20,000 bases of DNA, from the sequence record SRR31156797_201, one strand, 5' to 3'. A program made the translations under genes and the position numbers. Below are positions 7,434 through 11,996 of this stretch, piece by piece. The notes under the pieces are model-generated. The model worked only from the letters and a program-made list of their open reading frames with translations. It had not been told where the DNA came from and ran no database searches. The first letter of the stretch is position 1. Every line of letters begins with the position of its first letter.

Positions 7434-8597
7434 TTAAATTGAGTCTATTTCATTTGAGAATATCGAGCTAGCAATATCTCTTAAATTATATCTTGATGCC
7501 ATTGCCTCGCCATAGGCTCCTGTAGTTCTTATGGCAATTAAATCATTCCTTTTAGTTGCAGGCAAATCTACAGATTTACCAAAACAATCGGATGATTCGC
7601 AAATAGGTCCAACCACATCATATTTATCTATAGAACCATTTGAACTAATATTTTCAATTTTGTGATAGGCTTGATAAAGTGCAGGTCGTAATAATTCTGT
7701 CATTCCAGCATCTAAAATGGCGAACTTGGTGTTTACACCATTTTTAACGTAAAGAACTTTAGAAATTACACTTCCACACTGGGCTACAACCGAACGTCCT
7801 AGTTCAAAATGAAGTTCTTGCTTTGGTTTTAAATTCAAAAATTCATCAAAGATTCCAAAGAATGTTGGAAAATCAGGAATCGGATTTTCATCCGGATTTT
7901 CATAATCAACTCCAAATCCTCCTCCTACATTAATATGGTCTACGAATACTTGTCGGTTGGTAAACCATTCCTGAATTTCATTAATTCTTAAACAAAGACC
8001 TTTAAAAACACTTAAGTCGGTTATTTGAGATCCAATATGAAAGTGTAAACCAATTAGTTTAAGGTTTTTTAGGACTTGCAGATTTTCTAAAACACTTTCA
8101 AATTCCCATCGATTAATTCCAAATTTATTTTCTTCGATTCCAGTTGTAATGTAATGGTGTGTATTGGCATTTACATTCGGGTTGATACGAATGGCAATTC
8201 TTGCTGTCTTACCCGCTTCTTCTGCCAATTCGTTAATCAATTCCATTTCTGGTATCGATTCACAATTGAAACAAAAGATATCAGAATCAAGAGCAGTTCG
8301 AATTTCTTTATCTGATTTACCTACACCTGCATAAACGATCTTATCCGATGTAAATCCACATTCTAAAGATCGGTTGATTTCATTACCACTCACACAATCG
8401 GCACCAAATCCATAGGATTGAATTTTTTTCATGATACCATGATTTGCATTTGCCTTTACGGCATAGTGAACATGATATCCATACTTAGAGGATTCGGTTT
8501 GAATTGTATTAAGAGTTTGCTCCAAAATATTCATATCATAGAAATAGAATGGAGTATCTATATTATTGAATTTTTCTATTCTCTTACTGTTGAACAT
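7434..8597 (-). CDS. lysA: Diaminopimelate decarboxylase
   Basis: YAVKAN (PLP lysine), HFHIGSQ, GGGFG, ELGR, RPALY, GPICESSD, GAYG. Confidence 0.97.
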   Translation of the reverse strand: MFNSKRIEKFNNIDTPFYFYDMNILEQTLNTIQTESSKYGYHVHYAVKANANHGIMKKIQSYGFGADCVSGNEINRSLECGFTSDKIVYAGVGKSDKEIRTALDSDIFCFNCESIPEMELINELAEEAGKTARIAIRINPNVNANTHHYITTGIEENKFGINRWEFESVLENLQVLKNLKLIGLHFHIGSQITDLSVFKGLCLRINEIQEWFTNRQVFVDHINVGGGFGVDYENPDENPIPDFPTFFGIFDEFLNLKPKQELHFELGRSVVAQCGSVISKVLYVKNGVNTKFAILDAGMTELLRPALYQAYHKIENISSNGSIDKYDVVGPICESSDCFGKSVDLPATKRNDLIAIRTTGAYGEAMASRYNLRDIASSIFSNEIDSI

Positions 8598-8624: not shown

Positions 8625-9935
8625 TTAGAACAAATGATTACTTAATGCCTGAAGAGCAGCAATCTTATCTTCCTGATTTACTAAAACAGAGATGTTGTGC
8701 TTGCTTCCGCCATATGAAATCATACGCAAAGGGATATTTTCAAGAGCACCCAAAACTTTCTTAGCACTTCCTGCTGATTCCGAAATAAAATCACCAACAA
8801 TACAAATAATTGATTGATTTTGATCTATTTCAACACTTCCGTATTTAGCCAATTCGCTTTCTATTTCCTTCAAATTCGAATCATCATCAATGGTTAAAGA
8901 AACGGCAACTTCCGATGTGGTAATCATGTCTATCGGAGTCTTGTAAATTTCGAATACTTCAAAAACTTTGCGCAAGAATCCGTAAGCTAAAAGCATACGA
9001 CCTGATTTAATTTTGATTGCTGTAATTCCATCTTTAGCAGCAATAGCTTTAATCCCTTTTCCAACCAGATCATTGGAGATTAAGGTTCCTGAATCTGTTG
9101 GACTTAGAGTGTTTTTTAAGCGTACAGGTACACTTTGTGATTTACAAGGCATGATACTGGAAGGGTGCATAATTTTAGCACCAAAATAGGCTAACTCAGC
9201 AGCTTCGTCGAAGGATAATTGTTCAAGTGCTTTGGTATTTTCAACATATCTTGGATCGTTGTTGTGAAAACCATCTATATCAGTCCAAATTTGAACCTCT
9301 TCTGATTGCAATACAGATCCTATTAATGAGGCTGTGTAGTCACTTCCACCTCTCTTTAAATTGTCGATTTCGCCATAAACATTTCTACAAATAAAACCCT
9401 GGGTAATGTATAATTTGTGTTCTGTTTCTTCGCTAAGAATTCGGTCTAAATTTTCTTTGATATAGAAATAATCTGGTTCACCATCCTTATCTATTCTCAT
9501 GAAATTTAGAGCAGGTAGGAACACTGAATTAACTCCAGATTCTGACAAATAGTAGTGAAACATAGCAGTTGAAATCAATTCTCCCTGAGCCAAAATCGCC
9601 TTTTCCTGAAGTGTGGTAAAGCTTCGGAAAACAAAATTTCGGATGTAATTAAAATGAGATGTAATTAGCTCATTTCCTTTTGATTTATATTCTTCACTTG
9701 CATATAAATCGACTATTCTTTCTCGATATTGCTGTTCTAACTCAGTGATCTTTTCGTTAGCTAAATCATTCTGTTCCTGATACAATAGTTCCGTAATTTC
9801 AACCAGAGCATTTGTGGTTCCTGCCATTGCTGATAAAACGATAATTCTGGACTCATCCGCCTGGACGAGTTGAGCCAAATTTTTAATTCTCTCAGGCGAT
9901 CCTACTGATGTTCCGCCAAATTTTAAAACTCTCAT
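8625..9935 (-). CDS. lysC: Aspartate kinase, monofunctional with C-terminal ACT domains
   Basis: VLKFGGTSVG, VLSAM, RGGSDYTA, IWTDIDG, EAAELAYFGAKIMHP, TTSEVAVS; 27 bp upstream of lysA. Confidence 0.96.
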   Translation of the reverse strand: MRVLKFGGTSVGSPERIKNLAQLVQADESRIIVLSAMAGTTNALVEITELLYQEQNDLANEKITELEQQYRERIVDLYASEEYKSKGNELITSHFNYIRNFVFRSFTTLQEKAILAQGELISTAMFHYYLSESGVNSVFLPALNFMRIDKDGEPDYFYIKENLDRILSEETEHKLYITQGFICRNVYGEIDNLKRGGSDYTASLIGSVLQSEEVQIWTDIDGFHNNDPRYVENTKALEQLSFDEAAELAYFGAKIMHPSSIMPCKSQSVPVRLKNTLSPTDSGTLISNDLVGKGIKAIAAKDGITAIKIKSGRMLLAYGFLRKVFEVFEIYKTPIDMITTSEVAVSLTIDDDSNLKEIESELAKYGSVEIDQNQSIICIVGDFISESAGSAKKVLGALENIPLRMISYGGSKHNISVLVNQEDKIAALQALSNHLF

Positions 9936-10019
9936 TGGTTAATAGTTTTTTGTAATCCAATTCAATTGGAGTGTTTGTTATTGTATTTGCTTTACTATGT
10001 TTTTTAGAATTATAAGTTC

Positions 10020-10050
10020 AAAAAAAGCCTGCAGAATTTCTGCAGGCTTC
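10020..10050 (-). terminator. Intrinsic terminator/attenuator in the lysC leader
   Basis: Minus strand reads GAAGCCTGCAG-AAATT-CTGCAGGCTTTTTTT, about 85 nt before the lysC start and oriented towards lysC. Confidence 0.88.
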
Positions 10051-10091
10051 TATATTTTATGAGCGTTACATTATTCTACATACAAGTTTTA

Positions 10092-10148
10092 TCACAACTG
10101 TTTATTGCGTTTAATCTGTTTCTTGTGTTTGTAAACTAATATCGTCAT
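10092..10148 (-). CDS. Putative Lys-rich leader peptide of lysC-lysA (MTILVYKHKKQIKRNKQL)
   Basis: Read manually: ATG ACG ATA TTA GTT TAC AAA CAC AAG AAA CAG ATT AAA CGC AAT AAA CAG TTG TGA. Five of 18 codons are Lys; A-rich sequence precedes the ATG; the stop is about 41 nt before the terminator. Confidence 0.68.
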   Translation of the reverse strand: MTILVYKHKKQIKRNKQL

Positions 10149-10258
10149 CTCTTTTTTTTAATTTCTGATGTAAAGATGTATAAAATCCGAACAAAAACAA
10201 TGAAATATTTTCAAATTGTTAAAAAATTAACTGAAAATTATTTTTCAAACGTTTTAAA

Positions 10259-10603
10259 TTAAAATAGAATTCCATTCCAGCCCCAAAAGCCTCTTGGCAC
10301 ATCCATAAATTCAACATACACTCTGTCTTTCGGAATTTTTAGTTTCTCTTCAGCCAAACACGCAAACTTATTCGATAAATCTTTTGTTTTAGTATCTGGT
10401 AATCCGATACTTTTTAGTTGAAGAAAAATGGCTGGATCATTCATTCCTCCTAAGGTCATCTCAATTTTAGGCTCAAATGCTGTCATTACATATTTCTCTG
10501 GTTTTCCCAGTTCGAAAGAAATTAATGTGGAGCATTCTTTCAGAAAATCTTGTTGTTTTCTGCTTGAAAAACTTTTGTTAGTTTGAACTTTTAAATAGGG
10601 CAT
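10259..10603 (-). CDS. MIF-like phenylpyruvate tautomerase family protein
   Basis: N-terminal MP(YLKVQTN) gives the catalytic Pro1; LGKPEKYV, LKSIG, IPKDRVYVEF, WGWNG. Confidence 0.92.
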   Translation of the reverse strand: MPYLKVQTNKSFSSRKQQDFLKECSTLISFELGKPEKYVMTAFEPKIEMTLGGMNDPAIFLQLKSIGLPDTKTKDLSNKFACLAEEKLKIPKDRVYVEFMDVPRGFWGWNGILF

Positions 10604-10736
10604 ATGTAAAAGTTTTAAGGTTAAGAATCAATTGTATAAAGATCTTTAAATAGGTGTTATTCGAAGTAATTTCTCTGAATAACAAGGCATAAGTTATTAT
10701 TTAATCATCTATTTACAAAATTAAGGAAGTTCTTCT

Positions 10737-11093
10737 TTAATTGGATTCTAGTTCCGTTTTAGCATTTTCAACGGTCTTTTTCGAGTTGCCAATAAATATT
10801 TTATCATTGATTAAAAGGACTGGTCGTTTCAAAAATGTGTATTCAGATAGAATGTAATTCTTATAATCATCTTCGGTTAAATTTTGATCTTTAAGTCTAA
10901 GTTCTTTGTATTTCATAGCGCGGCGGCTAAATAAACTCTCATAAGAACCGGCTAGTTTAGCCATCTCTTCCAATTGTTCAGATGTTATTTTATCCAATTT
11001 AATGTCTTGTTGGATAAAATCAGAATCTAAATTCAATTCTTTAATAATACGTTGACAAGTTGAACAATTTCCAAGGTGATATATTTTCTTCAT
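10737..11093 (-). CDS. ArsC/Spx/MgsR family thioredoxin-fold protein
   Basis: IYHLGNCSTC (CxxC), LFSRR, LKRP; 118 aa; 6 bp downstream of the LysR gene. Confidence 0.88.
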   Translation of the reverse strand: MKKIYHLGNCSTCQRIIKELNLDSDFIQQDIKLDKITSEQLEEMAKLAGSYESLFSRRAMKYKELRLKDQNLTEDDYKNYILSEYTFLKRPVLLINDKIFIGNSKKTVENAKTELESN

Positions 11094-11099
11094 TTTCTT

Positions 11100-11996
11100 T
11101 TATTTACTATTACTTATTATTTTATCTATAATTTCTTCTACTTGTTTTAGGTTTTTACTTTGAGTCTGGATCGCGAAATATTTGTCGTAATATGTGGTTT
11201 GCACTCCTTGCCACAATTCCTTAATTGTTCCTGTTTCTATCAATTCATTGCAAACACTTAAAGGTAACAAACACAAACCTTCGTTTTGTTGAATTGCGCT
11301 TAGAATTGCAGTAAGGTTTGGAATAACATACCTGGGTTTAAAATATGGACGTTTTTTGAAATTGTCTATCCAAAATGATTTAATGGTTTCCATTTTATGA
11401 GAATAGGAGTACCAATTTTGTTCGCTAAGCCATTTTTCAGCTTCATCTATTTTTTTTTCATAAATAAAGCGATTAAAAGGAACTGTGTCTAAATCTTTAC
11501 TACATATTAAAATCACTGCTTCTCTGCACAAATGTCTGTATTCAATGTTTTGATAATTGTGTTGTAGTGTGGTAATAATTAAATCCAGTTGCTTTTTGAA
11601 TAATTTATCCTGTAGGTTCTCGGTTTCTCCAAAAGTGAACTCAACATTCATGTCTAGTTGATCCAATATGGATGCAAATGCATAACTAAACATTTCCATG
11701 GGCATTCCAACTCTGGCTGTAGGTCTGTTTTTTAAGGTTCTTCGTTTAAAATTCTCTTCGGTTTTTTCCAATCTTATTATGGCATCTTCAATTTGATTGT
11801 ACAACTGAATTCCATGAGGTGTTGGTAACATTTTACGAGGTTTACGCTCAAATAATTTTACTCCCATATAAGTTTCGAGTGCGGTAAGCTGTTGACTAAC
11901 TCCAGGTTGTGTAAGAAGTAAAGTTTCAGCTGCACCAGTTAATGTGCCTCGTTCATATATTGCTTTAAATGTTCTGTACCATTCAAGATTTACCAT
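11100..11996 (-). CDS. LysR family transcriptional regulator
   Basis: N-terminal HTH 'TLTGAAETLLLTQPGVSQQLTALE...LFER'; 298 aa; divergent from the DJ-1/YqhD genes. Confidence 0.95.
   Translation of the reverse strand: MVNLEWYRTFKAIYERGTLTGAAETLLLTQPGVSQQLTALETYMGVKLFERKPRKMLPTPHGIQLYNQIEDAIIRLEKTEENFKRRTLKNRPTARVGMPMEMFSYAFASILDQLDMNVEFTFGETENLQDKLFKKQLDLIITTLQHNYQNIEYRHLCREAVILICSKDLDTVPFNRFIYEKKIDEAEKWLSEQNWYSYSHKMETIKSFWIDNFKKRPYFKPRYVIPNLTAILSAIQQNEGLCLLPLSVCNELIETGTIKELWQGVQTTYYDKYFAIQTQSKNLKQVEEIIDKIISNSK

Follow-up and report, generated by a model that had tools for sequence, protein, structure and literature searches.

We analysed a 20,000-nucleotide stretch of DNA from sequence record SRR31156797_201 (hereafter the window) and focused on a short leader that lies on its minus strand, upstream of the lysine biosynthesis genes lysC and lysA. 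The window comes from a Marinifilum species, a marine member of the Bacteroidota. Its G+C content is 33.8%, and the closest match to its lysC product, among 80 loci obtained from species genomes in a lysC protein search, is a protein of an uncultured Marinifilum with 98% identity. The first gene under the proposed control, lysC (8625..9935, minus strand), encodes a monofunctional aspartokinase of 436 amino acids with Pfam AA_kinase and ACT domains; the second, the lysine-specific gene lysA (7434..8597, minus strand), encodes a diaminopimelate decarboxylase of 387 amino acids (Pfam Orn_Arg_deC_N and Orn_DAP_Arg_deC). We assigned the operon as lysC-lysA because a protein with AA_kinase and ACT domains is followed by one of the diaminopimelate decarboxylase type. 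Ahead of it, the minus strand carries in order an upstream open reading frame (uORF), a 41-nt spacer, a terminator hairpin with a T7 tract, a further 84 nt and the start of lysC at 9935. We interpret this arrangement as a ribosome-mediated leader-peptide transcription attenuator of lysC-lysA that would report the supply of charged tRNA-Lys, a reading to which we give a probability of roughly 0.78. An attenuator built on Lys codons had been proposed for this DNA in a first-pass annotation; the comparisons described below uphold that proposal, in that uORF and terminator are conserved together with the Lys codons and a promoter-like element, the linkage to lysC-lysA is constant, and a paralogue lies upstream of thrA.

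The uORF, MTILVYKHKKQIKRNKQL plus a stop codon, comprises 18 codons at 10092..10148 on the minus strand (ATG 10148-10146, TGA 10094-10092). The candidate sensor codons are Lys codons 7, 9, 10, 13 and 16 (10130-28, 10124-22, 10121-19, 10112-10 and 10103-01), so that five Lys fall within codons 7-16. The intrinsic terminator (10020..10050, minus strand) consists of the hairpin GAAGCCTGCAG-AAATT-CTGCAGGCTT at 10050-10024 and a T7 tract at 10026-10020; its GC-rich core stem pairs GCCTGCAG with CTGCAGGC (10047-10040 with 10034-10027) around the loop AAATT. A simple terminator scan reports this palindromic hairpin on the plus strand only, and the minus-strand U7 is seen in the sequence itself. The first-pass annotation had described both the 18-codon frame with five Lys in ten codons and the GC-rich terminator with U7 that follows it after 41 nt, ahead of lysC, and the sequence confirms them. 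At least five Lys per 10 codons are found in 2 of the 196 small open reading frames of the window (12-30 codons, six frames), which makes Lys content weak evidence when taken alone. Our case therefore rests on comparison rather than on the window by itself.

Conservation of the leader and its linkage to lysC

Among the 80 loci, a Lys-rich uORF and the same terminator lie 5' of lysC in L001-L019 and L068, which belong to Marinifilum, Labilibaculum, Ancylomarina and metagenome-assembled genomes (MAGs) of Marinifilaceae or Bacteroidales. The leader was not found in the other loci of the range L020-L080 (Vicingaceae, Odoribacter, Prolixibacteraceae and others); the exceptional L063 has an unrelated terminator and open reading frames with one Lys only. 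A lysC orthologue is present in 73 of 80 family genomes sampled. These 80 genomes were also searched with R1, a covariance model built from type-A leaders; it matched 30 of them at E <= 2e-10, in every case directly 5' of a lysC orthologue and on the same strand (30/30). Weaker R1 matches at L167 and L168 proved to be ordinary terminators behind unrelated reading frames, and one in G069 fell on the strand opposite to its lysC leader; the assessment left aside four more, in G006, G060, G048 and G079. Downstream, lysA follows lysC in 20/20 type-A loci. Upstream, the MIF-ArsC-LysR neighbours of the window leader are present in 12 of these 20 loci and absent in 7, while L012 matches MIF only, further off. 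Even in loci with other upstream genes, the leader remains ahead of lysC-lysA.

We aligned 33 distinct leaders from Marinifilum, Labilibaculum and Ancylomarina (alignment A1). The frame of the uORF is open in 33/33, compared with 1/33 and 0/33 for the other two frames. Lys is the most frequent residue of the leader peptides (144/630), at three to six per peptide, and it occurs at varying positions. Its two codons interchange (104 AAA, 40 AAG), as in L015, where KRNK is written AAG..AAG. The Met-Thr-Ile start of the window peptide, to which meaning had been attached since these residues are the other aspartate-family end products, is not conserved, and relatives start MRFTF, MMAIAL or MNLPL. 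Alignment of the lysC upstream regions thus bears out the uORF, the Lys enrichment and the terminator expected from the first-pass annotation, and fails to supply covariation in the antiterminator.

A second form of the leader appeared when 40 upstream regions of more distant lysC orthologues of the family were compared. This type B leader was found in 11/40 (L116-L121, L128, L129, L134, L139 and L146). In its uORF, for example MKTRYTNNYKQMMCMQRLFAG, Tyr-Lys is invariant and the next residue is Gln, His or Leu. The Tyr-Lys codons belong to the 5' strand of a long helix, and a hairpin is also present; the last segment of the uORF, GCAGGCU, pairs with the 5' arm of a terminator that differs from the type-A one, and the predicted antiterminators lie inside the uORF (-12 to -20 kcal/mol). 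Versions of their own are carried by L148, among the 40, and by L018 and L019, among the 80 loci; that of L018 has a perfect 9-bp antiterminator inside the uORF (-13.4 kcal/mol). The sequence A-U-A-A-A-C-A is common to type A, type B and single divergent members. No such leader was recognised in 28 of the 40 distant upstream regions. In the type-B or divergent leader loci inspected downstream, lysA lies 3' of lysC in 5/6.

Terminator and competing pairings

The terminator is paired in 95.5% of cells across the 33 sequences, and its stem, even its loop, is nearly invariant across genera. Two upstream segments can fold against each other or against it. Region 1 (10122..10148, minus strand) corresponds to uORF codons 1-9 and, in minimum-free-energy (MFE) folds, forms the 5' strand of a long hairpin that sequesters region 2. 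Region 2, or Block II (CTTGTATGTAGAATAATGTAACGCTCAT, 10059..10086, minus strand), is the candidate antiterminator strand, able to pair either with region 1 or with the terminator arms and loop. Its ATGT.A.GC is invariant in the 33 sequences, and in L013 and L103, both Ancylomarina, the uORF extends into Block II itself. The MFE fold of the window consists of the long region 1-region 2 hairpin enclosing a small hairpin, followed by the terminator; the pairing of ACAAG (10126-22) with CUUGU (10086-82), already noted in the first-pass annotation, belongs to this fold. Per-sequence folds place a small inner hairpin (10093..10109, minus strand) over the last Lys codon and the stop codon. Relatives have it in the same place with differing sequences (AAACA/UGUUU, AACGU/ACGUU, AAACAC/GUGUUU and ACAGAU/AUCUGU).

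The whole leader folds with z = -5.9 relative to 200 shuffles. Region 1 holds Lys codons 7, 9 and 10 of the window uORF, and in 19/33 sequences it forms a better duplex with region 2 than its dinucleotide-shuffled versions do (mean z = -2.07). RNAalifold, run on a MAFFT alignment, recovers the terminator only, since the alignment does not bring region 1 into structural register; per-sequence folds were therefore used.

Alternative folds were obtained by placing a ribosome on the last Lys codon, forbidding terminator pairing and folding each sequence separately. Under these conditions Block II formed a helix with both terminator arms in 33/33 sequences, at -4.2 to -16.9 kcal/mol; the value of -4.2, from L010, is a script artefact that arises because the last Lys codon there adjoins the stop. 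One part of the helix engages the 5' arm (UGUA..GCU with AGC.UGCA; in the window, UGUAAcGCU with AGCCUGCA), and another engages the loop and 3' arm (UGUAGAAU with AUUCUGCA). Block II is able to pair with both arms because the palindromic CUGCAG occurs in each. This double duty of the terminator strands would also explain why stem and loop are nearly invariant. The alternative pairing is present in 91.9% of A1 cells, compared with 30-55% in slid controls. In distant members, the loop and its partner vary together (AAAUUC/GAAUUU in L019, AAACUC/GAGUUU in L148). The antiterminator suggested at first, CUUGUAUGU (10086-10078) with AUAUAGAAG (10055-10047), did not hold up: it is paired in 60.7% of cells versus 30-61% in slid controls, a value that 275 of 500 shuffles reach, and the helix just described is different and better conserved.

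Leaders of other aspartokinase genes

Six Ancylomarina-like genomes contain a second copy of the leader (L161-L166, R1 E values of 1.8e-7 to 1.2e-5; for example, L162:289-447). These copies sit 5' of thrA, which encodes an 810-amino-acid bifunctional aspartokinase/homoserine dehydrogenase (AA_kinase, ACT and homoserine-dehydrogenase domains), and thrB, encoding a GHMP kinase, comes next. In alignment A2, which pairs these copies with the lysC leaders from their own genomes, both kinds have the A-rich 5' end, the ATG and about the first seven codons, Block II (GTGTGGAATAA[C/T]GTGAAGCT) and the terminator (AAGCCTGCAG...TTCTGCAGGCTTTTTTT). The middle part sets them apart: lysine leaders read K-Q-I-K-H-N-K-H-Y and thrA leaders, for example, T-A-T-I-I-T-M-G-S-I-I-T-M. 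Within 27 residues, the thrA leaders encode 5-8 Thr, 2-5 Ile, 3-5 Met and 0-1 Lys, and the stop codon of their uORF is located inside Block II. Codons that track the controlled pathway on an unchanged scaffold are what a ribosome-sensed attenuator predicts; neither a lysine-binding RNA nor an unrelated small gene predicts such a swap. We regard the thrA-thrB paralogue as the strongest sequence evidence that the lysC leader acts as a lysine attenuator.

A more tentative suggestion, which we put a little short of even odds, is that the Marinifilaceae leaders constitute a reprogrammable scaffold. The platform would comprise the 5' codons, Block II and the palindromic CUGCAG terminator, both arms and loop of which would be invaded by a single antiterminator strand. 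Within one genome, a duplicate of it would have been redirected from lysC-lysA towards thrA-thrB, or in the opposite direction, by no more than the exchange of some 30-40 nt of sensor codons, Lys for Thr/Ile/Met or vice versa. If this is true, these leaders would be a natural demonstration that the amino-acid specificity of an attenuator can evolve by cassette replacement, and they would offer a ready pair for swap experiments in a phylum without Shine-Dalgarno-led initiation.

Other aspartokinase genes have controls of different kinds. In Marinifilum flexuosum (G002) and Labilibaculum manganireducens (G003), Thr-rich leader open reading frames of another design, ...ITTTTTTTTTL and MGMSMSETSICTIPTIITTTTTTL, lie about 300 nt 5' of thrA (L169, L170); no Rfam family reaches threshold for these two leaders. 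In G005, a Marinifilaceae MAG, a third aspartokinase paralogue has a SAM riboswitch (RF00162, 67.3 bits) on its 5' side, at L178:121-218. Considered jointly, these predicted elements suggest a separate RNA control for each aspartokinase isozyme.

Proposed mechanism and its alternatives

A promoter-like element of Bacteroidota type precedes the uORF (10171..10200, minus strand), with TTG at 10200-10198 and, after 19 nt, CATCTTTA at 10178-10171. Position and spacing are kept in relatives (TTG, 19-20 nt, CAnnTTT(A/G)), about 25-30 nt 5' of the ATG throughout, and we infer a transcript start near 10165. Between 10300 and lysC, a relaxed -7-like pattern finds this element and one site at 10253 only. 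In the window, the stretch from the terminator to lysC contains no -7-like box, even with the relaxed pattern, and TAnnTTTG occurs in that interval in only 2/37 relatives. Given that no promoter-like box lies 3' of the terminator, lysC transcripts should need to pass it. A sigma-70 promoter scan gave 11 sites versus 9.4 expected; its model is unsuited to Bacteroidota promoters and the result was not used.

In the proposed mechanism, transcription would start about 20 nt 5' of the uORF at the conserved Bacteroidota-type promoter, and a ribosome would load onto the A-rich leader and translate the 18 codons. With lysine plentiful, the ribosome would reach the stop codon, leaving region 2 masked or re-paired with region 1; the GC-rich hairpin and U7 would then form, and RNA polymerase would terminate at about 10020. 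With Lys-tRNA scarce, the ribosome would stall at Lys codons 7, 9, 10, 13 and 16 and cover region 1. Block II, thus freed, could pair first with the 5' arm of the terminator and then with its loop and 3' arm. By capturing both arms it would block the terminator and allow read-through into lysC-lysA.

Several observations weigh against this interpretation or limit it. Pairing between region 1 and region 2 is no better than in shuffles in 14/33 sequences, mainly from Ancylomarina. Nearly all changes in the alternative pairing are one-sided (for example, A-U to G-U), both sides having changed in one pair, and 33-44 of 500 shuffles match the observed values; what is conserved is pairing potential rather than covariation. 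In all type-A sequences the terminator is the more stable of the two structures (about -14 to -26 kcal/mol, versus -8 to -17 for the antiterminator), and the antiterminator would therefore have to act kinetically, during transcription. The block AAACGCAATAAAC, encoding K-R-N-K, is nearly invariant at the nucleotide level, and because this exceeds what Lys codons require, an additional RNA- or peptide-specific constraint may act on it. Type B leaders have only one or two Lys codons, with two or three Met codons directly behind the invariant Tyr-Lys (YKQMM), which makes the amino acid they sense less clear; methionine might be sensed too. The promoter assignment depends on what we take to be the Bacteroidota consensus, TTG-N19-TAnnTTTG. 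Finally, the expression data are assembled contigs, in which transcript starts, ends, strand and levels cannot be read and DNA is possibly present. Contigs from RNA libraries (four runs examined) overlap the leader; one, from run X3, for which the label 'RNA' is a guess, covers 9929-10147 including the terminator with zero differences, and contig ends near 10146-10153 fall at the site of an A8 run. No conclusion was drawn from these contigs.

Among the alternatives, we consider it unlikely that ribosomes are arrested specifically by the conserved peptide (K-R/H-N-K or Y-K-Q) or by the mRNA around it, in the manner of tnaC or erm leaders and whether or not a small molecule takes part; the switch would then answer something other than Lys-tRNA supply. 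The near-invariance of AAACGCAATAAAC in nucleotides, the shared A-U-A-A-A-C-A and the one or two Lys codons of type B are consistent with such an arrest, as is the difficulty that basic-X-basic motifs pose for ribosomes in the presence of macrolides. Yet it is exactly the K-R-N-K block that the thrA paralogue exchanges for Thr, Ile and Met codons fitting its operon. The variable number and position of Lys, the interchange of AAA and AAG, and the lysine-biosynthetic rather than resistance or catabolic nature of the downstream genes likewise argue against peptide-specific arrest.

Somewhat less probable still is a ribosome-independent RNA switch, either an undescribed riboswitch or a protein-binding leader, with the uORF incidental. 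Unusual conservation of Block II and of the terminator including its loop, scarce two-sided covariation and the presence of an inverted-repeat box and a LysR-family gene nearby would suit such a switch. However, a frame kept in 33/33 leaders with synonymous Lys changes is not what it would produce, and a lysine aptamer cannot explain the use of the same scaffold with other codons at thrA-thrB. There is also no match to an Rfam family, and the single small hairpin between uORF and terminator leaves no space for an aptamer.

We place lower again the possibility that the leader is an independent small gene, for a small basic protein or a small RNA, that does not regulate the adjacent lysC. It does have its own promoter-like element and strong terminator, and the released E. 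coli trp leader RNA works as a small RNA, according to PMC12612679. Against a separate gene stand the position of all 30 R1 matches directly 5' of lysC and on its strand, also where neighbours differ, the lack of a promoter-like box between terminator and lysC, the conserved alternative pairing with the terminator and a codon content that tracks the downstream operon. The least credible alternative, that the hairpin merely terminates the upstream MIF-like gene and the Lys-rich frame arose by chance, could appeal to the abundance of AAA at 33.8% G+C and to the 2/196 small reading frames that are equally Lys-rich, but it is already contradicted by the 209 nt that separate the hairpin from the MIF stop with a conserved promoter-like element between them, by retention of the leader where the upstream gene differs and by the conserved uORF frame.

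The upstream neighbours of the leader in the window are genes for a LysR-family regulator, an ArsC-family protein and a MIF/tautomerase-like protein (10259-11996, minus strand; MIF-like gene at 10603-10259). In each of the 12 Marinifilum and Labilibaculum loci this trio is the immediate 5' neighbour of the leader; it is missing in Ancylomarina. The inverted-repeat box, GTTAATTTTTTAACAA (10216..10231, minus strand), lies about 15 nt 5' of the -33 element and is conserved in the type-A alignment. Of 151 lysC upstream regions, 75 have a GTTnA...TnAAC-like box, among them leaderless ones of Vicingaceae and Odoribacter-like genomes. The box may be a putative transcription-factor site of lysC, conserved in Bacteroidota, and its membership in the attenuator is uncertain. 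In the spacer between terminator and lysC, a small hairpin (TCCAAT-TGA-ATTGGA, 9956..9970, minus strand) lies 20 nt 5' of the lysC start codon and could affect stability or translation. Its position is kept in relatives with other sequences (CTCCCATTCAATTGGGA in L005, CCATTTCCGAAAGAAATGG in L002). The spacer itself measures 244 nt in one Marinifilum MAG (L011/L094) compared with the usual 85-100 nt or so, and therefore carries an insertion there.

The lysine riboswitch, or L-box, is the usual RNA control of lysine genes, and lysC is its textbook target. The first-pass annotation had seen no L-box here, and our searches agree: for RF00168, no match reaches the gathering score in the window and none is found up to E = 10 in 9800-10400. 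The model also gave matches in 0/5 related genomes, while the controls E. coli, B. subtilis, T. maritima and L. lactis were positive. Every other Rfam family likewise stays below its gathering score in the window, the amino-acid leader models included (Thr_leader RF00506, 20.4 of 55 bits; Leu_leader RF00512, 23.3 of 50; Trp_leader RF00513, 15.4 of 41). Sub-threshold matches (MicC, SpF39, the Leu, Thr and Trp leaders, and others) were rejected as chance; they are far under gathering and all fall on the terminator hairpin. Like the L-box, the proposed leader would exert RNA control over lysC, often achieved by premature termination in the riboswitch. It differs in that there is no aptamer, the proposed sensor being the translating ribosome.

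A closer parallel is E. coli thrL, in which a leader peptide and an intrinsic terminator also stand 5' of an aspartokinase gene and the codons name the end product; the Marinifilaceae even have a Thr/Ile version of their leader 5' of thrA-thrB. Unlike thrL, the leader in the window combines Lys codons with lysC-lysA, and the RF00506 match covers the terminator only. Its putative promoter is of the Bacteroidota type, it contains no Shine-Dalgarno sequence, and its terminator is palindromic, with arms and loop that would all be engaged by the antiterminator strand. The layout also fits the four-segment scheme of E. coli trpL, with region 1 inside the uORF, a predicted 1-2 anti-antiterminator, a predicted 2-3/4 antiterminator and a 3-4 terminator, although the amino acid is another and the 1-2 pairing is weak in part of the Marinifilaceae leaders.

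The mechanism would be a classical attenuator with an uncommon amino-acid specificity, one that is not unprecedented. Tsubouchi and colleagues are reported to have described in 2005, in J Biol Chem, a short leader open reading frame with Lys codons that attenuates lysine genes in Thermus thermophilus, a member of the Deinococcota, where it reportedly controls a cluster of the alpha-aminoadipate pathway. The element described here differs from that account in controlling lysC-lysA of the diaminopimelate pathway in Bacteroidota, a distinction that we draw by description only. The earlier remark that this mode is little described for lysine genes is tempered by the Thermus report. Searches of the open full-text literature gave no description of a lysine leader peptide, either ahead of lysC or from Bacteroidota. 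The available portions of PMC3556520, PMC12612679, PMC4117421 and PMC2659441 do not mention such a peptide, and the last of these, in that portion, presents lysC solely as a riboswitch target. The search result for PMC5584792, on lysine riboswitch distribution, shows no occurrence of 'Bacteroidetes'.

These predictions bear on annotation in the Bacteroidota. The small open reading frame is unannotated, the terminator would be a regulatory site rather than a gene end, and each aspartokinase isozyme may have its own RNA control. Cultured strains such as Marinifilum flexuosum DSM 21950 and Ancylomarina salipaludis would offer an experimental system. That Lys and Thr/Ile forms of a single scaffold occur side by side in individual genomes makes an unusually clean comparative case for codon-based sensing. 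In a whole family of Bacteroidota, lysC and lysA seem to be governed by a ribosome-sensed leader peptide and not by the lysine riboswitch.

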